Virus record (IMG/VR): IMGVR_UViG_3300038805_000124
Reading direction: 5' to 3' (one strand)
Length of the DNA stretch: 31,572 bases
Source: a virus
Every line of letters begins with the position of its first letter. The first letter of the stretch is position 1. Shown here one piece after another: positions 1-31,572 of the stretch. The notes under the pieces are model-generated. The model was not told the origin of the DNA. It worked only from the letters and a program-made list of their open reading frames with translations, and ran no database searches. Position numbers and translations under genes: made by a program.

Positions 1-127
1 GATACATCGCTCACTGCGGCGGACTTTGCGAAGTTCAGGAATTATATCTACGACAGCTCGCAAATTTTCATCCGCGCCGGCTATGCTTACCAGGATGCCA
101 ACTTCATGTGCAGCGAAGACGGAGATG
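1..127. repeat. Terminal direct repeat, copy 1 (identical to 31446..31572); most likely a circular-assembly overlap
   Basis: By eye, bases 1-127 (gatacatcgctcactgcgg...gaagacggagatg) recur exactly at 31446-31572. The repeat lies inside one continuous open reading frame. Confidence 0.9.
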
Positions 128-12870: not shown

Positions 12871-13464
12871 ATGGCTGGTAAAAAATTCGCTGCTGACTTC
12901 GAGCGTATAGACGAAGTTAAATCCAATGACAAGGTGCTAATCCAGGATTCCGGAACCGGCATCGTGAAATATGCCACACCGGCACAAATAAACGCAATGT
13001 TCGACCAGCTTGTAGCTGACATTCAGACCGCTATCGATGCGAAGACGGACGCTGAAGCTGCATTCTTGGCAGCTCTCGGGGCGAAAAGCGATGCTGAAGC
13101 GGCGAAGAGCGATGCTGTAACCGCTAAAACTGACGCTGTCTCTGCGAAGACGGCTGCGGAGACTGCGGCGAACGATGCTGCGAATGCGCTTGCCGGAGTG
13201 AACGAAGAGCTCGCCGCTCTCGCCGCTCTTGTTGACAATGCCGGCGACCATAAGGCTATCTCCTACGATGCCGAGGAAGCCTACAAGGTCTGCGGCTTCC
13301 GGACGGTCATCTCCGGAGCCGGTGTTCCGTCGCTTGAAACCATTCCTCTACAGTTCGGCATACCGGCATTTATCGGACAGCTCTACATCGACACAAGCGC
13401 CGCTTCCGGAGGCTTGTATTATGCGGTTGGAACTTCATCAATTTCGGACTGGAAAAACGCTTAA
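12871..13464 (+). CDS. Fibre-like protein with an Ala-rich repeat shaft (197 aa)
   Basis: The central tract DAKTDAEAAFLAALGAKSDAEAAKSDAVTAKTDAVSAKTAAETAANDAANALAG is a degenerate repeat. The C-terminal GQLYIDTSAASGGLYYAVGTSSISDWKNA looks like a fibre tip. It lies directly upstream of the DGR target. Confidence 0.5.
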   Translation: MAGKKFAADFERIDEVKSNDKVLIQDSGTGIVKYATPAQINAMFDQLVADIQTAIDAKTDAEAAFLAALGAKSDAEAAKSDAVTAKTDAVSAKTAAETAANDAANALAGVNEELAALAALVDNAGDHKAISYDAEEAYKVCGFRTVISGAGVPSLETIPLQFGIPAFIGQLYIDTSAASGGLYYAVGTSSISDWKNA

Positions 13465-13476
13465 AAATAGAAAAAT

Positions 13477-14673
13477 ATGGCAAATACGATTGTAAAATAC
13501 CCAAAAGTAGGCGACATCCTTTGCTTGGATGAGAACAATATAAAAAAATATATCGCCCTCGATACTTTCGAGGCGCTCCCTGCCGGCTGGACTGCGGTCG
13601 GAGTAGTAGCGCACCGCCAAGGCAACAAGGCGATAGTGGTGCACAAGACGAGCTCCTCGCGGAAGTGGGCCGATGTGTTCCGCTGGTACCTAACCGGCAA
13701 CGCCATGACGGACGGGGCGGCCCATACGGAGAACTTCACCGCTAACTCCGTTTCCGTGCCGGTTACCTGGCAGACCTCTTCGCTCTCCGCGTTCGCCGAG
13801 GCACTGAACTCCGCCATTGCCGGCCAGGACTTCGGGGGGCACTCCTACCGCGCTCTCTACGATGCGGCAGAGGATAAGGTCATCGTCATACACGACACTT
13901 ATATTACCTACATAAGTCCTACTATGTCGGGCGTTACCTTCAACCGCCTTATTGGCGAGGACACTCCTATGGATGTCAATATATTCGGCATCAACGGAGT
14001 AGGCATAGAATACAAGGGCCTCAACTGGCGTAAATATTACGAACATATCAAGACAGCGACTTCGAGCACTCTCAACCCGACATCTCCGATAACATCGCTC
14101 GGCACTTATCCTCTCAGCTACGCTTCTTATTCGTCTGAAATCGGAGCTTACGCTCGGAATATCTACGGAGACGGAGAGGAGAACTACGAGAGATATCTTC
14201 GCGACTACATGGCGCGCTTTCCTTCGCATCGCGGAGCGCTCGCGGAGCGCTTCCGGAGCGGCAAGGACAACACCTACAAGCTCGCCGGCAAGACTTACAT
14301 AGCGAGCGACAGTTCGCTTAAGCCGCTTTATCCGGCGGCCGAATACTGCGCAGCCGTAGGTTACGACTCCGAAGGGCTGGAGGTCGGAAACTGGTACCTG
14401 CCTTCCATATATGAGATTTTCAAAATCTGGAGCAAACTCACTTACGGCCTGGCCGGCGTTTCGCGCCAGAACTCCGATGCGGTCAACCGCTCGCTGTATG
14501 CTATCGGCGGCTCCGCGATATCTCTTGGCAGCAATGCTTGGAGCAGTTGTAGGTACTACTCGCTCAGCGCTTGGCACTACAGTCTCGCTGGATGTGCAAG
14601 CAGCTACGGTTGCGGCGACATCAACTGGGCCGTGCCCTGCATGCTTTTGGACCTGAGCGAAAGCGAAGTATAA
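13477..14673 (+). CDS. DGR target protein with a C-terminal C-type-lectin-fold / DUF1566-like variable domain (398 aa); likely receptor-binding
   Basis: The C-terminus AAEYCAAVGYDSEGLEVGNWYLPSIYEIFKIW...GSNAWSSCRYYSLSAWHYSLAGCASSYGCGDINWAVPCM matches the DUF1566/CLec pattern (yC...W.LPs..E). The last ~40 codons are the VR. Confidence 0.85.
   Translation: MANTIVKYPKVGDILCLDENNIKKYIALDTFEALPAGWTAVGVVAHRQGNKAIVVHKTSSSRKWADVFRWYLTGNAMTDGAAHTENFTANSVSVPVTWQTSSLSAFAEALNSAIAGQDFGGHSYRALYDAAEDKVIVIHDTYITYISPTMSGVTFNRLIGEDTPMDVNIFGINGVGIEYKGLNWRKYYEHIKTATSSTLNPTSPITSLGTYPLSYASYSSEIGAYARNIYGDGEENYERYLRDYMARFPSHRGALAERFRSGKDNTYKLAGKTYIASDSSLKPLYPAAEYCAAVGYDSEGLEVGNWYLPSIYEIFKIWSKLTYGLAGVSRQNSDAVNRSLYAIGGSAISLGSNAWSSCRYYSLSAWHYSLAGCASSYGCGDINWAVPCMLLDLSESEV
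14526..14643 (+). repeat. DGR variable repeat (VR)
   Basis: Aligns without gaps to 15205-15322, with 104 of 118 positions identical by hand alignment. The shared GC-rich 3' block GGCCGTGCCCTGCATG (14628-14643) is IMH-like. Sequences diverge immediately after it. Confidence 0.9.
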
Positions 14674-14685
14674 GATTTAACTCTT

Positions 14686-14714
14686 GCGGCGGTTGTCCGT
14701 AAGGCTGCCGCCGC
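14686..14714 (+). promoter_or_regulatory. GC-rich hairpin downstream of the VR (DGR target-recognition cruciform and/or terminator candidate)
   Basis: GCGGCGG 14686-14692 pairs with CCGCCGC 14708-14714. The loop contains cc-GTAA-gg. It starts 43 nt after the VR end and 13 nt after the target-gene stop. Confidence 0.45.
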
Positions 14715-14723
14715 TTGGCTTTA

Positions 14724-15128
14724 ATGCGAGCGAAAAAAATGAAAGACAAGGCGGGAATATATGTGGATTTGTACAACATGCGTAAGCTTCTCAAGAGGGC
14801 GCAGTTCGCGATGTCGAAAGCTGATAGAATTATCTACGGAACGCCGGTGCTTGTGAAGAACGGAGAGGTGCTTGCAGACTTTGTCCTCGCGTACGATTTC
14901 GCGGACGAGCGAGACAAGTATATCCGGAAGATGTGCGCGGATTTCGAAGTGCTGAAATTAGACCTTAGAATTATCGCCGAGGACAATGTGCTGAAGTGCC
15001 CCGACCCTGAGAATGCTCGCATGAAGCCGGAAACGCTGAAGATTGAAATTTTCGAACTTGTCGCAAGAATTGACGAAGGTATAACCAAATGGCGGAAAAG
15101 TGTCAAAGGCAAGATTGCGCCCGCTTAA
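14724..15128 (+). CDS. avd: Accessory variability determinant (Avd)-like protein (~134 aa; start uncertain among TTG 14715, ATG 14724 and ATG 14739)
   Basis: Small, basic, predicted helical protein lying exactly between the VR-bearing gene and the TR, as in canonical DGRs. The sequence style (LLKRAQFAMSKADRIIYGTPVLVKNGEVLADFVLAY...KYIRKMCADFEVLKLDLRIIAE) fits a four-helix-bundle Avd. Confidence 0.6.
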   Translation: MRAKKMKDKAGIYVDLYNMRKLLKRAQFAMSKADRIIYGTPVLVKNGEVLADFVLAYDFADERDKYIRKMCADFEVLKLDLRIIAEDNVLKCPDPENARMKPETLKIEIFELVARIDEGITKWRKSVKGKIAPA

Positions 15129-15204
15129 GAGCGCAACGGACTGATAGAATTAAAGGGGCGCCCGCCGTCATTTACGGCTATGAGCAAGACAGTGGCGCTC
15201 AGTG

Positions 15205-15322
15205 TGGCAGCAATGCTTGGAGCAGTTGTAGGTACAACTCGAACAACGCTTGGCAATACAGTAACGCTGGATGTGCAAGCAACAACGGTTTCAGCAACAT
15301 TAACTTGGCCGTGCCCTGCATG
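15205..15322 (+). repeat. DGR template repeat (TR), non-coding template
   Basis: 118 bp ending 18 nt upstream of the RT ATG. Contains 8 AAC codons in the VR-equivalent frame, 7 of which differ in the VR. Confidence 0.9.
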
Positions 15323-15340
15323 AATTGATTTAACAAAGTA

Positions 15341-16585
15341 ATGGTAAAAACGAGCAACTTCATAAGCGCCTACTATGTTACCAGGCAGAACAAGCGGCGG
15401 AGCGCTGACTCCGTCGAGTTCGAACTGCACTGGGAGCGGAACATAGCGCGGCTGATGAGCGAGCTCGCGGACCATTCCTTTGCGCCGACCGCCTATACTT
15501 TTATTGCATCGAGGCCCCGACCTCGCGAGGTCTTCGCCTGTGAAATGGCGCTCAGGGTGGTGCACCATTATATCGACATGCGTCTCAGGCCGCTGCTGGA
15601 AGAAGAGCTGACGGACAGAACTTACAACAATAGGATTGGCTATGGCGGCAACGAAGCTGTAAATCAGGTTATCTCCGACATATACGAGGTTTCGAAAGGT
15701 TTTACTTGTGATGCGTGGATAATAAAAATGGACCTTAAAGGGTATTTTCCGAACGCGGACCAAGACATAGTGTACCGGCAGCTCTCCGGACTTGTGGAGC
15801 GAAAATACAAGGGCGATGACAAGGACCTGCTGCAATATATGATAGCGCGCAGCGTTTACTCCTTTCCTGCCAGGCATTGCTACCGGAAGTCGCCGCTCTG
15901 GAAGTGGCAATATATCGAGCCGAGCAAGAGCCTATTCCGCAAGCCTGACGGCATCGGCGGAGCCATAGGGCATCTCATCTGGCAGAACGCAATGAATTAC
16001 TACCTCAACGATATCGACCATTATATCCTCGACGAGTGTGGGCTGAAATATGTTCGCTTCGTTGACGACATGGTAATAGTGACGGACAACAAGGAGTGCA
16101 CCCTCGCTCTTGTGGCGGACATCCGCAAACGCCTCGCCGCGCTCGGATGCGAGCTGCAACCTTCCAAGTTTTATTGCCAGCATTACACGAAGGGCGTTGA
16201 GTTTATCGGCTCTCATATAAAGCTCGATAGGGTGTATGCCGGCAATAGAGTTATCCATAACGCCAGGCGGACAATCCAGAAGCACAACAGAAATATAAAA
16301 ATCAGGAATATCGAGCACTTCCTCGCATCGATGAACTCGTATCTCGGCATTTTCAAGACGCGGAACGAATACGGAACAATTCGAAATCTCCTTTGTGAGG
16401 TCTCTCCGGAGTGGAAGCGGTATGTCAGCTTCGACTACCGGCGGAAGTGCTTTAGAGCCAACAAAGGATATACGCATAGGGAGATTTTATCTCGCAAATA
16501 CAATTTGAAATTTAAAAAACATAAAAATCATGACAACGACAGAACAAATAGCTACGTTGGAGTCGCGCCAGCTGGAGCTGCTTAA
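15341..16585 (+). CDS. DGR-type reverse transcriptase (414 aa)
   Basis: YVRFVDDMVIV is a YxDD catalytic box. PRPREVFACEMALRVVHHYI is typical of the DGR RT N-terminus. IGGAIGHLIWQNAMNYYL corresponds to the DGR-type LGxxxSQ region. LASMNSYLGIFKTRNEY matches the thumb region. Confidence 0.9.
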   Translation: MVKTSNFISAYYVTRQNKRRSADSVEFELHWERNIARLMSELADHSFAPTAYTFIASRPRPREVFACEMALRVVHHYIDMRLRPLLEEELTDRTYNNRIGYGGNEAVNQVISDIYEVSKGFTCDAWIIKMDLKGYFPNADQDIVYRQLSGLVERKYKGDDKDLLQYMIARSVYSFPARHCYRKSPLWKWQYIEPSKSLFRKPDGIGGAIGHLIWQNAMNYYLNDIDHYILDECGLKYVRFVDDMVIVTDNKECTLALVADIRKRLAALGCELQPSKFYCQHYTKGVEFIGSHIKLDRVYAGNRVIHNARRTIQKHNRNIKIRNIEHFLASMNSYLGIFKTRNEYGTIRNLLCEVSPEWKRYVSFDYRRKCFRANKGYTHREILSRKYNLKFKKHKNHDNDRTNSYVGVAPAGAA

Positions 16586-16787
16586 GGCTATGCGACAATC
16601 AGACGCGCACGCTTCAAAGTGCACCAAGCTCGGCAAGAGCTTCGCGGAAGAGTATCCGGAGGAACATGCCGCCTACGCTGCTGCGAACGACGAGTACAAC
16701 GGTAACGAAACAGCCCTCTATGCGCTTTACAACGAGCGTTACGCTGAAATGGAGGCGGAAATTGAAGCTCGCGAAGAAGAAATTTAA
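16530..16787 (+). CDS. Hypothetical acidic helical protein (85 aa)
   Basis: ATG in an A-rich context. Overlaps the RT 3' end by 56 nt. No family recognised. Confidence 0.45.
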   Translation: MTTTEQIATLESRQLELLKAMRQSDAHASKCTKLGKSFAEEYPEEHAAYAAANDEYNGNETALYALYNERYAEMEAEIEAREEEI

Positions 16788-16798
16788 AGGTCAAGAAA

Positions 16799-17074
16799 AT
16801 GAAGGAATTTATTTTGAAATACATCGGCCGAACGGACCTGCTCCTGCATGCGCTCGGCATCTACTTTATTGCCACTTTTCTCGCGAAGGCTTTTATCTGG
16901 TGCGGAATGGGAGAAGTGCTCGCCAAGGTGCTTGCTATTGTCATTGCCATAGCCGTAGGGCTGTGGAAGGAATTTATCCATGACAAGAAAAAAGGCAAAG
17001 GCAAGTTCGAGGTTGCGGATTTGATTGCCGACGGATTTGGAATTGTGTTATCTATTTTGGTTATGTTTTTCTAA
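16799..17074 (+). CDS. Holin-like small membrane protein (91 aa)
   Basis: Three hydrophobic segments (LLLHALGIYFIATFLAKAFIW, VLAKVLAIVIAIAVGLW, LIADGFGIVLSILVMFF) with a charged KKKGKGK loop. Located upstream of the endolysin. Confidence 0.55.
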   Translation: MKEFILKYIGRTDLLLHALGIYFIATFLAKAFIWCGMGEVLAKVLAIVIAIAVGLWKEFIHDKKKGKGKFEVADLIADGFGIVLSILVMFF

Positions 17075-17090
17075 TTTTTTTTGCGCCGTT

Positions 17091-17681
17091 ATGGAAAATG
17101 TAGGTGGAGTTATCTCTCTCGCGGAAGCTATCAGTGATTATGGTATATCAATAATGATGAACGCTATCTTCTTGACAGTGATATTGTTTGTTCTGGGGTG
17201 GTTTAAGAAACTGATTGACAAGACTTTGGATGCGAACACAACACAGATGTCGGAGCTTATCGAAACGACACACGCACAGACCGTCTTATTGGATGATATA
17301 GCGGGGGGCTTGCGGCCAAGAACGCTCATGCAGATAAGAGATATATACAACATATACTTCTCCTATGCGGTGGAACAGATGTGCCTTATAGTCAAGCGTA
17401 TGCGCAAGGAAAATCACTTGGCTGACAAAAAGGCCACCTCCGAAAAGGTAAAATTGCTTCTCGATAATATCCACAACGAAAGGAACGCCCATTTCGAAAA
17501 CCACACATATAGGGGCAGAACACTCAAAGACTACACGAATGATGAGTGGAGAGATTGGGCATATACTGCGGTAATGAAGGAAATATACCGCAAGACCGAC
17601 AATGAGGACAGTCTAAGAAGCAACATAAAAGCCCTCTATAACAAAATAAAATACGATTTTGACGAGAGGCTCAACAAATAA
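17091..17681 (+). CDS. Membrane-anchored lysis-module protein (196 aa from the ATG at 17091)
   Basis: N-terminal TM segment (ISIMMNAIFLTVILFVLGWF) followed by a soluble helical domain. Lies between the holin-like gene and the amidase. Confidence 0.45.
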   Translation: MENVGGVISLAEAISDYGISIMMNAIFLTVILFVLGWFKKLIDKTLDANTTQMSELIETTHAQTVLLDDIAGGLRPRTLMQIRDIYNIYFSYAVEQMCLIVKRMRKENHLADKKATSEKVKLLLDNIHNERNAHFENHTYRGRTLKDYTNDEWRDWAYTAVMKEIYRKTDNEDSLRSNIKALYNKIKYDFDERLNK

Positions 17682-31064: not shown

Positions 31065-31572
31065 ATGTATAATCTTCTTCGCACTAACTATCTGGACGCA
31101 TTCGGCACTGCCGAGAAAGCCGCTGACAATGCCGCCGGCGGAGTCGCTTTATGGGAGCTGCCGAGCGAAATGCGCCGCGCGTACAATCCGATAATTGTAA
31201 CTCGCACGAAATATCTGCATCTTATTCGCGGCACTTATGAGCCGAGCTATGCTCCGGTTCCGAATTTTATCAAAAAGACAGCAGCGCGCAAAATAGGCTT
31301 TGACGCAGCTCTTTCCAGCAGCATACGCATTTGTGTTAAGTTGACGGATGATTCATACGCTGTCGACACGGTCGGTTCCGGACGCACCGAATGGACATTC
31401 AGTGATATCTCCAACGATATAGCGGAAGTGGTAGGAGCTTCGTTCGATACATCGCTCACTGCGGCGGACTTTGCGAAGTTCAGGAATTATATCTACGACA
31501 GCTCGCAAATTTTCATCCGCGCCGGCTATGCTTACCAGGATGCCAACTTCATGTGCAGCGAAGACGGAGATG
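31065..31572 (+). CDS. N-terminal part of a ~483-aa virion (tail/baseplate-associated) protein that continues across the circular junction into 1..1071
   Basis: The ATG at 31065 (MYNLLRTNYLDAFGTAEK...) stays open to the window end. The frame is identical to ORF 106..1071 once the 127-bp overlap is collapsed. The ORF track misses it because there is no stop before the window edge. Confidence 0.7.
   Translation, partial: MYNLLRTNYLDAFGTAEKAADNAAGGVALWELPSEMRRAYNPIIVTRTKYLHLIRGTYEPSYAPVPNFIKKTAARKIGFDAALSSSIRICVKLTDDSYAVDTVGSGRTEWTFSDISNDIAEVVGASFDTSLTAADFAKFRNYIYDSSQIFIRAGYAYQDANFMCSEDGD
31446..31572. repeat. Terminal direct repeat, copy 2 (identical to 1..127)
   Basis: Same 127-nt string as the window start. 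The window ends exactly where the repeat ends. Confidence 0.9.

Follow-up and report, generated by a model that had tools for sequence, protein, structure and literature searches.

Diversity-generating retroelements (DGRs) are known from Bordetella phage BPP-1, the prototype, and from Bacteroides-type gut phages. The hairpin that follows the variable repeat (VR) of BPP-1 is spaced from it by about 4 bp. The requirement for this hairpin is one of structure and not of sequence, and the published pattern for DGR hairpins consists of a distance of 4-34 bp and a GRNA loop (PMC3240598). The signature motif of DGR reverse transcriptases (RTs) is [I/V/L]GxxxSQ, and residues R74 and I181 of the BPP-1 enzyme (bRT) promote adenine mutagenesis (PMC7826257). 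In vitro, bRT variants gave 0.4-3% non-adenine changes, described as within error of the wild type (PMC7826257), and Wu et al. found non-adenine changes in 23% of DGRs. The closest annotated relatives of the locus described here belong to the Bacteroides uniformis phages Bacuni_F1, F2 and F4 (MT635598, MT806186, MT806185; Hedzet et al. 2021), in which differences confined to the VR beside the RT correlate with the host strain (PMC8143477). Chromosomal DGRs also diversify Bacteroides fimbrial (type V pilus) tip proteins of the BACOVA_04982 type (4eps).

Here, a window of 31,572 nucleotides, which is the whole stretch of viral DNA that was analysed, was examined for such an element. The phage genome is circular with a length of ∼31.4 kb, and its host belongs to the Bacteroidota (Bacteroidales-type). 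We conclude with high confidence that this genome carries a complete and probably active DGR.

Organisation of the locus

An earlier note on this DNA had proposed that all four DGR parts are present in canonical order, and each part passed an independent test. The three open reading frames were reproduced, with that of avd encoding 137 or 134 aa depending on the start. The locations of the features are shown in Table 1. The target gene follows the portal gene, a DUF6712 gene and a short fibre-like gene, while tape-measure and baseplate genes do not adjoin it.

Table 1. Features of the DGR locus; positions are those of the window.
Feature	Position	Strand	Basis or detail
Exchangeable module with the whole DGR (predicted)	13201..17665	+	99.3% identity in L027
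DGR target gene, 398 aa	13477..14673	+	Pairwise match, family matches, structure
Variable repeat (VR)	14526..14643	+	Target residues ~351-389; 104/118 identical to TR
GC-rich block common to VR and TR, start of IMH-like region	14628..14643	+	Sequence comparison
Mini-hairpin GCGAAAGC	14657..14664	+	DNA folds of VR-downstream sequence, 13 loci
Conserved GC-rich hairpin, GTAA (GNRA-type) loop	14686..14714	+	Covariation
Divergent Avd, 134 aa from ATG; TTG at 14715 also possible	14724..15128	+	Remote homology, fold
Template repeat (TR)	15205..15322	+	33 adenines, 8 AAC codons
DGR reverse transcriptase, 414 aa	15341..16585	+	Pfam, PHROG, PDB matches; motifs

The module extends from the C-terminal third of the fibre-like gene through the target, avd, TR and RT to three small downstream ORFs. 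In the related locus L027 it matches the window while the flanking genes are unrelated to those of the window; judged from these alignments, the 4.5-kb DGR module is portable and common to two phage backbones. When further copies were sought by exact pattern, IMG/VR yielded one match and the JGI metagenome contigs yielded none. A second, remote VR was not found on either strand, including by an adenine-masked scan, and the window as a whole gave no matches to Rfam and no tRNAs.

Template and variable repeats

The TR and VR form the top direct repeat of the region (88% identity), and a base-by-base comparison gave the count of identities that the earlier note had obtained by hand. The adenine bias that it had claimed was likewise borne out when the repeats of the window and of 31 related loci were aligned by machine: 11 of the 14 mismatches in the window lie at TR adenines (Fisher one-sided p = 3.9e-5; the TR has 85 non-adenine positions), and the other three are at TR thymines (T>G at 14612, T>C at 14622 and T>G at 14627). 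In the VR, seven of the eight AAC codons are replaced by codons for Y, L, S, L, S, Y and D, exactly as claimed. As is typical of DGRs, the VR is situated at the 3' end of the target gene, AAC is enriched, and the TR adenines fall mostly at the first two codon positions (18, 12 and 3 at positions 1, 2 and 3, respectively). The VR had been described as the last ∼40 codons of the target; the position was right, although nine codons remain between its end and the stop.

Both repeats finish with the same GC-rich sequence, GGCCGTGCCCTGCATG, and diverge thereafter, and the TR ends 18 nt 5' of the RT start codon; both observations had been made earlier and were reproduced. Immediately after the 16-nt block the VR has a fixed CT, where the TR has AA. 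This boundary, with AAY in the TR and CTY in the VR, recurs in 15 of 16 TR/VR pairs inspected and in most loci of the genome set.

Reverse transcriptase and accessory protein

The RT matched Pfam RVT_1 (6e-15) and PHROG 1423 (3e-53). Among solved structures, its sole significant relative was the BPP-1 DGR RT (8ub7_A, 3e-15); the 5hhl/5hhj chains, named 'Retron-type reverse transcriptase', scored 1e-3 to 3e-3, and the PDB search found no further RT below 0.01. The sequence matches thus place the enzyme in the DGR clade and not among group II intron, retron or defence RTs, in agreement with the expectation that it would not group with intron or retron enzymes. The reported YVRFVDD box was found at residue 237 with the catalytic box intact, and the bRT residues R74 and I181 have their counterparts in R62 and I209. 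The signature at residues 209-215 reads IGHLIWQ, a pattern (IGxxxWQ) in which W takes the place of S while I and Q are kept. This W is kept clade-wide (L004-L017), and the TR/VR mismatches there are purely at adenines, which indicates that IGxxxWQ is compatible with function.

The Avd protein of the window had no match to PF22296 or PF05635 even at E <= 10, and neither it nor the target gave direct matches in Pfam, NCBIfam, PHROGs, PADLOC or PDB. A sequence search of the PDB with the Avd family profile retrieved no Avd. PF22296 was matched by four of the 19 family members (best 1e-10), and the AF2 model (pLDDT 87.5) shows four long helices in a bundle, with 2gsc, 8ub7_B (TM 0.67/0.73) and 2rld as top Foldseek matches, at E-values of just ∼0.02. 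The protein has a pI of 9.39, its gene sits between the target and the TR, and an exact copy of it occurs on 41 contigs. Transitive homology, predicted fold, charge and position therefore support the assignment of this ORF as an Avd resembling bAvd and the four-helix bundle of the 23S rRNA IVP. The earlier description of a helical, Avd-like ORF of ∼134 aa is thus upheld by remote homology and fold, and not by a direct PF22296 match.

Target protein and its neighbour

The target is composed of N-terminal beta-rich domains followed by a C-terminal DUF1566/Lcl_C-like domain that bears the VR. A direct sequence search with the target found nothing in Pfam, PHROG or PDB, and Lcl_C (PF07603) was matched neither by the full protein nor by its C-terminal 157 aa, even at E <= 10. 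The DUF1566/C-type-lectin-like C-terminus put forward earlier therefore failed at the level of direct profiles but was recovered by other means. Residues 287-376 align pairwise with the DUF1566 target of Bacuni_F1 (E 4e-7), which itself matches Lcl_C, and five of the 45 members of the target family match PF07603. The AF2 model (pLDDT 96.5) had phage DUF1566 proteins among its BFVD matches with a probability of 1.0; its best PDB match was BACOVA_04982 (4eps, E 2e-3, TM ∼0.2 over the full length), and the Lcl C-terminal domain (8q4e) appeared at E 0.42. The structure search further showed a resemblance of the N-terminal domains to sheath or flagellar-cap decoration domains. The neighbouring fibre-like gene had a weak tail-fibre match (E 0.002).

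Membership of the Tentaclins was considered and rejected. These proteins have an N-terminal C-lectin domain followed by Ig domains (PMC10743442), whereas the lectin-like domain and VR of the target are C-terminal.

Hairpins downstream of the variable repeat

A GC-rich hairpin lies 42 nt 3' of the VR, directly before avd. Eight of its 12 pairs carry compensatory changes (seven loci), and its paired cells amount to 90.5%, compared with 69% in shuffles. The covariation score was 0.615 versus 0.217, with none of 500 shuffles reaching it and slid controls at <=0.18. No hairpin comparable to it was found downstream of the TR. As is typical of DGRs, an IMH-like GC-rich end of the VR is thus combined with a GC-rich inverted repeat after the VR only. 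The covariation agrees with the BPP-1 requirement for structure and not sequence, and the hairpin probably marks the recipient site, as a candidate target-recognition hairpin or cruciform, although its distance and its GYAA loop (GTAA in the window) are outside the published pattern. The mini-hairpin nearer to the VR is weak in the window; its counterpart in relatives is a hairpin of 5-7 bp with a GAA-type loop. A counterpart of the BPP-1 priming spacer was also sought in the 160 nt after the TR, where RNAalifold over 11 loci gave zero pairs.

Related loci and natural variation

The same TR/VR layout, with near-exclusive adenine mismatches, was observed in all 15 viral relatives that include the upstream region. 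In the viral set, 17 of 18 loci carry an RT, and L012 and L003 are without the full upstream region. Among the genomic relatives the layout was present in 16 of 17 loci, with 277 mismatches at adenines and 10 at other bases. Across the 31 related loci, adenines account for ∼96-100% of the mismatches.

In 14 near-identical targets, residues 352-384 are hypervariable while residues 199-351 and 385-398 are invariant, and the TR is identical in 11 of the 12 near-identical loci retaining one. The flanks hardly vary: the copies compared have the same 200 nt downstream of the VR and, with one exception, 2-4 differing sites in the 600 nt upstream. The prediction that variation would be specific to the VR and to adenine-matched sites was approximated with 19 near-identical loci from other assemblies, which hold 14 distinct VRs, and came out as expected: 160 of the 189 changes in these VRs are at adenine sites and 29 are not. 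The four parts, the adenine-specific pattern, the constancy of the TR beside a hypervariable VR and the clade-wide conservation of the layout are direct observations.

Non-adenine changes make up ∼15% in the lineage versus about 2-3% in distant relatives (Fisher p = 4e-7 for the first nine VRs), with an estimated rate at non-adenine positions of about 2.4% per site in the lineage VRs. Nearly every VR copy contains them at a comparable frequency; six of the 29 are synonymous. Two possible sources were rejected. A knock-on effect from a neighbouring adenine was not supported, given that 12 of the 29 events lie 5' of an adenine compared with 20 of 67 sites (p = 0.35), and the S-to-W change in the RT motif does not explain them, as distant W-bearing relatives mismatch 100% at adenines.

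Three independent cassette deletions were found among near-identical phages, and the RT of the distant relative L014 contains a stop codon. In a first contrast, three contigs with the same cassette deletion shared one VR and five phages with intact cassettes had five. This contrast was discarded as evidence of activity, since phages with an intact RT also share VRs: L050 and L051, and likewise L052 and L053, have identical VRs across two samples, the sample accessions being of the same series. Diversification is therefore not fast enough for every sample to differ.

In the near-identical phage L024, four clustered TR changes (A89G, A92G, A93G and T96A) are mirrored in its own VR, which shows information transfer between the two repeats. 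It is doubtful, though conceivable, that gene conversion or self-homing wrote a selected VR variant back to the TR and gave later diversification a new starting point; the TR would then not be a fixed master. If true, the write-back, the T-biased non-adenine changes and IGxxxWQ together would amount to a broader mutational repertoire and a two-way relation between TR and VR.

Discussion

The persistence of VRs across samples despite an intact RT, the repeated loss of the cassette and the RT stop codon of L014 would suit a decaying DGR whose parts are present but whose copy no longer homes, so that the VR drifts by ordinary point mutation. The three non-adenine mismatches of the window point in the same direction, two of them being non-synonymous (F379C and L384W) and unique to this copy. 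However, the RT frame is full length with its catalytic box intact and its key residues conserved, and the TR is byte-identical to those of ten other loci retaining one. The even frequency of the non-adenine changes and their synonymous fraction make them look like a by-product of the same local process rather than drift after inactivation; their rate is also near that of the bRT variants, and such changes are familiar from other DGRs. Inactivity is accordingly judged very unlikely. It is barely credible that the RT is of a non-DGR type (group II intron, retron or defence) standing beside a repeat derived by chance or recombination. Its best NCBIfam match is indeed a group II intron RT/maturase model, and PADLOC gave weak matches to DRT models, but these are far below the family cut-offs (63.5 vs 300 bits) and cover palm motifs only. 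Group II intron or retron RNA was not detected at Rfam gathering scores, the best solved relative is a DGR RT, and adenine-specific TR/VR pairs occur in 31 related loci.

The target probably acts as an adhesin or receptor-binding protein exposed on the virion, and the benefit of the DGR would then be host-range switching or diversification. A functional DGR might instead diversify a decoration or adhesin for mucus glycans or other cells, or a defence component, and we regard this as an unlikely though serious competitor. The position of the gene behind the portal, DUF6712 and fibre-like genes, away from those for tape-measure and baseplate, and the decoration-like N-terminal domains are consistent with it, and alternative ligands have been proposed for other phage DGR targets (PMC10743442). 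Against it stand the correlation of Bacuni VR differences with host strain and the composition of the module, in which the target is accompanied by the C-terminal third of the fibre-like gene, suggesting that the two proteins cooperate.

For the complete DGR that we favour, a mechanism can be proposed with an enzymology modelled on BPP-1 by homology. A transcript containing the TR would be reverse-transcribed by the RT together with Avd, with G, C and U copied mostly faithfully and random bases placed opposite adenines. The cDNA would then take the place of the VR in the target gene, with transfer halting at the common GC-rich block and the TR left unchanged, and the GC-rich hairpin would probably flag the recipient site. 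The expected result is massive variation at about 20 surface residues of the C-terminal lectin-like domain.

This DGR is real but ordinary, extending a family already described from Bacteroides-type gut phages. It gives the Bacteroidota phage set one more complete and well-documented element and leaves the current understanding of DGRs unchanged. It defines a clade of >30 loci from gut and rumen metagenomes with an Avd invisible to the Pfam bAvd model and a variant RT motif, and pipelines that require the bAvd model and the RT signature could miss or under-call this clade. The constant TR, hypervariable VR, recurrent cassette loss and portable module make this phage a convenient natural model in which the maintenance, loss and exchange of DGRs can be studied.

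Comparison with known systems

The locus contains the four components of the BPP-1 DGR in unchanged order (mtd-avd-TR-brt in the prototype) and shares with it a homologous RT with the counterparts of R74 and I181 conserved, an Avd predicted to be a basic four-helix bundle, a GC-rich block that ends both VR and TR, and a GC-rich hairpin after the VR only. Unlike the Bordetella phage, its target is of the DUF1566/Lcl_C type and has no sequence similarity detected to any solved structure. The imperfect IMH/IMH* repeat of BPP-1 has no equivalent here, as VR and TR are unrelated past the GC block. Because the TR ends so close to the RT gene, a priming spacer, if present, would extend into the RT reading frame, and a conserved structure was not detected there. 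The hairpin is also more distant, with a GTAA loop, whereas the BPP-1 consensus loop is GAAA (PMC3240598).

The variable region lies within a C-terminal DUF1566-like domain, as in the BACOVA_04982-type tip proteins, to which the structural match is weak; the present target differs from these in being phage-encoded and in its N-terminal domains. The Bacuni phages are the nearer comparison. They have the same order of target, avd, TR (within a spurious ORF), RT, small ORFs and lysin, a DUF1566/Lcl_C-type target gene with the VR at its 3' end, adenine-specific mismatches and a Bacteroidota host. The RT identity is just 36-38%, however, and the Bacuni Avd matches PF22296 at 5e-36, in contrast to that of the window. 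The Bacuni phages also have a canonical RT motif (IGNLFSQ), a second, remote VR that the window is without, and a target of 253 aa, compared with 398 aa and extra N-terminal domains in the phage described here.

Repeat architecture and adenine bias

The window holds a complete and very probably functional diversity-generating retroelement (DGR) of the phage/DUF1566-target type, and the earlier note was right in proposing a complete element from the sequence alone. The VR and the TR formed the top direct repeat of the region, and a base-by-base comparison gave 104 of 118 identical positions, with the 14 mismatches located at TR adenines (11) and TR thymines (3). Against a TR composition of 33 A and 85 non-A, the adenine bias of the mismatches gave a Fisher p of 3.9e-5. 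The TR adenines occupied codon positions 1, 2 and 3 in 18, 12 and 3 cases, and of the eight AAC codons in the TR, seven differ in the VR, where they specify Y, L, S, L, S, Y and D. The two repeats shared the 3' end GGCCGTGCCCTGCATG and diverged directly after it, while the TR ended 18 nt before the RT start. All of the observations reported in the earlier note (the ORFs, the repeat and its identity count, the adenine mismatches, the AAC recoding, the shared end, the 18-nt spacing and the YVRFVDD box) were confirmed.

Features of the DGR region and deletions in near-identical phages (window coordinates)
Feature	Position	Strand	Remarks
Target ORF, 398 aa	13477-14673	+	ORF calling
VR	14526-14643		
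Second hairpin 3' of the VR	14686-14714		12 pairs, GTAA/GCAA loop, 42 nt from VR
Avd ORF, 137 aa (from 14715) or 134 aa (from 14724)	14715/14724-15128	+	ORF calling
TR	15205-15322		
RT ORF, 414 aa	15341-16585	+	ORF calling
Deletion in L020	14954-16443		direct repeats GAAGTGCT; removes Avd C-terminus, TR and RT
Deletion in L028, L029 and L030	15052-16504		direct repeats TTGAAATTT; removes Avd C-terminus, TR and RT
Deletion in L021	15652-16234		repeats ATGGCGGCAA vs ATGCCGGCAA; removes RT catalytic core

Reverse transcriptase and related loci

The RT carried the YVRFVDD box at residue 237 and matched Pfam RVT_1 (6e-15) and PHROG 1423 'reverse transcriptase' (3e-53). Across all PDB structures, its sole significant solved relative was 8ub7_A (3e-15), a 328-aa reverse transcriptase from a diversity-generating retroelement ribonucleoprotein entry, with the match covering the N-terminal and palm/thumb regions; the next matches, chains of 5hhl and 5hhj ('Retron-type reverse transcriptase'), reached only 1e-3 to 3e-3. 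The NCBIfam group II intron, retron and Drt models and the PADLOC defence-RT models recovered palm motifs only, far under their cut-offs, and a scan of the whole window at Rfam thresholds detected neither group II intron nor retron RNA. In the 8ub7_A alignment, R62 and I209 of the window RT, invariant in the 10 of 10 clade members compared, corresponded to R74 and I181 of bRT, the RT of Bordetella phage BPP-1, the two residues whose role in promoting adenine mutagenesis has been demonstrated (PMC7826257). At the DGR signature [I/V/L]GxxxSQ the window RT reads IGHLIWQ (residues 209-215, window 15965-15985), and the serine-to-tryptophan change was common to all clade members, at 37% to 70% identity.

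An IMG/VR scan with the window RT returned 18 loci, of which 17 carry an RT (37-70% identity) and one, L020, has just the last 37 RT residues left. One locus begins at the RT (L012) and one has a partial upstream region (L003); in all 15 others, the TR lay directly 5' of the RT and the VR ~650-780 bp farther upstream, at an ORF end. Mismatches were adenine-only in 11 of these 15 loci; in L006 and L007 a 3-nt indel was the sole addition to the adenine mismatches, and L010 had two non-A mismatches and an indel. A scan of species-representative genomes revealed 17 further loci, hosted by Bacteroidales, Prevotellaceae, Marinilabiliaceae and a few Fibrobacter-binned MAGs, mainly from gut and rumen samples. 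A TR/VR pair was identified in 16 of the 17, with 277 adenine and 10 non-adenine mismatches in total.

The related locus L014 (5001-6239; RT 48% identical) presented an in-frame stop codon in the RT, yet its 14 TR/VR mismatches were adenine-only. Either recent inactivation of this copy or an error in sequencing may explain the stop.

Accessory and target proteins

The Avd call was the weakest claim of the earlier note. Neither PF22296 nor PF05635 matched the window Avd ORF even at E <= 10, unlike the Avd of Bacuni_F1, a Bacteroides uniformis phage with a related DGR, which matched PF22296 at 5e-36; the alignment of the window Avd with the Bacuni Avd reached E = 0.008 only. The homologue search retrieved 28 proteins, and an exact copy of the 134-aa Avd was found on 41 contigs. 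One homologue, 36% identical, bears a PF22296 annotation, and four members of the 19-member Avd alignment matched this family (best 1e-10). The alignment-based model (pLDDT 87.5) displayed four long helices, and its top PDB folds were two four-helix-bundle proteins, 2gsc and 2rld (S23 ribosomal protein family by its label), together with chain B of the BPP-1 DGR ribonucleoprotein (TM 0.67/0.73), with Foldseek E-values of ~0.02 only. The protein is basic (pI 9.39), and Avd proteins are generally basic, with a mean pI of 9.5 (PMC5758913). Despite the lack of a direct family match, the 134-aa ORF was accepted as a divergent Avd on the basis of the transitive PF22296 matches, the fold and the pI.

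The target gave no direct sequence match in Pfam, NCBIfam, PHROGs, PADLOC or the PDB sequences, but its proposed DUF1566/lectin-like C-terminus was supported by homologues and structure. Residues 287-376 align to the Bacuni_F1 target (E = 4e-7), which itself matches Lcl_C (former DUF1566), and Lcl_C was matched by five of 45 target homologues. The target model was highly confident (pLDDT 96.5), with the VR falling on its last five β strands. Its best PDB structure match, at E = 2e-3 only, was 4eps, a Bacteroides ovatus fimbrial protein and known DGR target (PMC8143477). Comparison with a library of viral structures gave matches to several phage 'DUF1566 domain-containing proteins' and to tail-fibre proteins, with probability 0.92-1.0. 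The match to the Legionella Lcl C-terminal domain (E = 0.42) is by itself no evidence. The possibility of a tentaclin was ruled out by the reversed domain order.

The 197-aa gene beside the target showed a weak tail-fibre match (E = 0.002). It contains five copies of a 21-nt periodic repeat (window 13029-13166), encoding a heptad-like segment rich in alanine, aspartate and lysine; the related contig L026 has another sequence in place of this segment and a product of 218 aa.

Population variation

The target's 90%-identity cluster comprised 56 sequences. In 14 members, residues 352-384 were hypervariable, and residues 199-351 and 385-398 were without any variation. Other assemblies supplied the DNA of 18 near-identical loci, giving 19 with the window. 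Twelve loci retain a TR, which is identical in 11 of them, and 14 distinct VRs occurred among the 19 loci, with 160 adenine and 29 non-adenine differences from the TR. The first nine distinct VRs showed change rates of 0.34 per A site and 0.022 per non-A site, with at least one change at 29 of the 33 TR adenines. Among the nine copies compared, the 200 nt 3' of the VR did not differ, and the 600 nt 5' of it held two to four differing sites in all copies except one. The VR-specific, adenine-matched polymorphism that the earlier note proposed to check in reads was seen here as variation between samples (19 loci).

The sole variant TR in the population, in locus L024 (4929-5046, equivalent to window 15205-15322), carries A89G, A92G, A93G and T96A within 8 nt, and the mirroring of these four bases in the locus's own VR is direct evidence that TR and VR are coupled. 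The variant TR may have arisen by gene conversion from the VR, by self-homing into the TR, or by a mutation of the TR with homing afterwards; a simple chimera made in assembly is improbable, since the TR combination with A99 unchanged is absent from the VR.

The three mismatches at T in the window, which give F379C, a silent change at I382 and L384W, were unique to its copy, with TR-templated L384 found in 13 of 13 other cluster members and TR-templated F379 in 11 of 13. Non-A changes made up ~15% of VR changes in the window lineage vs ~2-3% in distant relatives (p = 4e-7, first nine VRs). Across the 14 VR copies including the window, they were T-biased (18/29) and recurred at TR positions 29, 34/35, 58, 76, 86/87 and 96/97. 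Six of the 29 were synonymous, in favour of a locally acting mutational process over selection; enrichment beside adenines was not significant for these 29 changes. At ~2.4% per non-A site, the inferred rate resembles the 0.4-3% of BPP-1 bRT variants in vitro, which was called within error of wild type (PMC7826257), and according to Wu et al. 23% of DGRs have non-A changes (PMC5758913). The changes are read as RT infidelity or integration errors and not as an argument against a DGR.

Recipient site and hairpins

Of 16 TR/VR pairs compared, 15 had a fixed AAY in the TR after the shared GC block and CTY, which encodes leucine, at the same place in the VR, with Bacuni_F1 as the single outlier; most genome-scan loci also had this difference. 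Since this site is never randomised, it probably lies just beyond the transferred segment and marks its 3' boundary. The first hairpin 3' of the VR, strong in several relatives, was shrunk to GCGAAAGC in the window. In the second, eight of the 12 pairs were preserved by two-sided changes across seven loci, and covariation was 0.615 vs 0.217 in shuffles, with 0 of 500 shuffles as high and slid partners at <=0.18. No comparable hairpin was found 3' of the TR, nor any conserved structure after it. Homing in BPP-1 requires a hairpin in a structure-dependent, sequence-independent manner (PMC3240598), and the second hairpin fits this type, although its 42-nt distance and GTAA/GCAA loop are both outside the published pattern of 4-34 bp and a GRNA loop (PMC3240598).

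Genome context and cassette exchange

An exact 127-bp terminal direct repeat (window 1-127 and 31446-31572) shows that the window is a complete assembly of ~31.4 kb, either circularly closed or from a terminally redundant genome. It encodes a tape-measure protein, head maturation protease, virion structural proteins, portal, RecT-like protein and amidase, and contains no second VR. A 4.5-kb block (13201-17665), comprising the C-terminal third of the fibre-like gene, the entire DGR and three small ORFs, and ending near the lysin gene start (17659), was 99.3% identical in phages with unrelated genes on both sides, which have other head/portal genes and a Peptidase_M15_3 lysin in place of the window's Amidase_3. 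The near-identity of this block amid unrelated flanks demonstrates that the DGR moves as a cassette from one phage backbone to another. Three independent cassette deletions were observed in near-identical phages, each flanked by short direct repeats and each leaving an orphan VR. Contig L022 stops precisely at breakpoint 15051, which suggests that deleted and intact forms coexist in its sample.

An 85-aa ORF (16530-16787), without a family match, shares 56 nt with the 3' end of the RT gene but is read in a different frame; it was called in all related contigs and is kept through all three deletions. Two ORFs lie between the DGR and the amidase (16799-17681), one of 91 aa containing several hydrophobic segments, the other of 218 aa (PHROG 19698, unknown function); they may be holin-like lysis genes.

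Comparison with known systems

We infer host-range diversification as the function of the element. Its kind is already known, the closest described and nearest annotated relatives being the Bacteroides uniformis phages F2, F4 and Bacuni_F1, with 36-38% RT identity. The gene order is the same, namely the DUF1566 target, Avd, a spurious ORF spanning the TR, the RT and then the amidase, whereas the Bacuni_F1 RT keeps the signature serine (IGNLFSQ) where the window clade has tryptophan. The VR differences among the Bacuni phages were tied by their authors to differences in host strain (PMC8143477).
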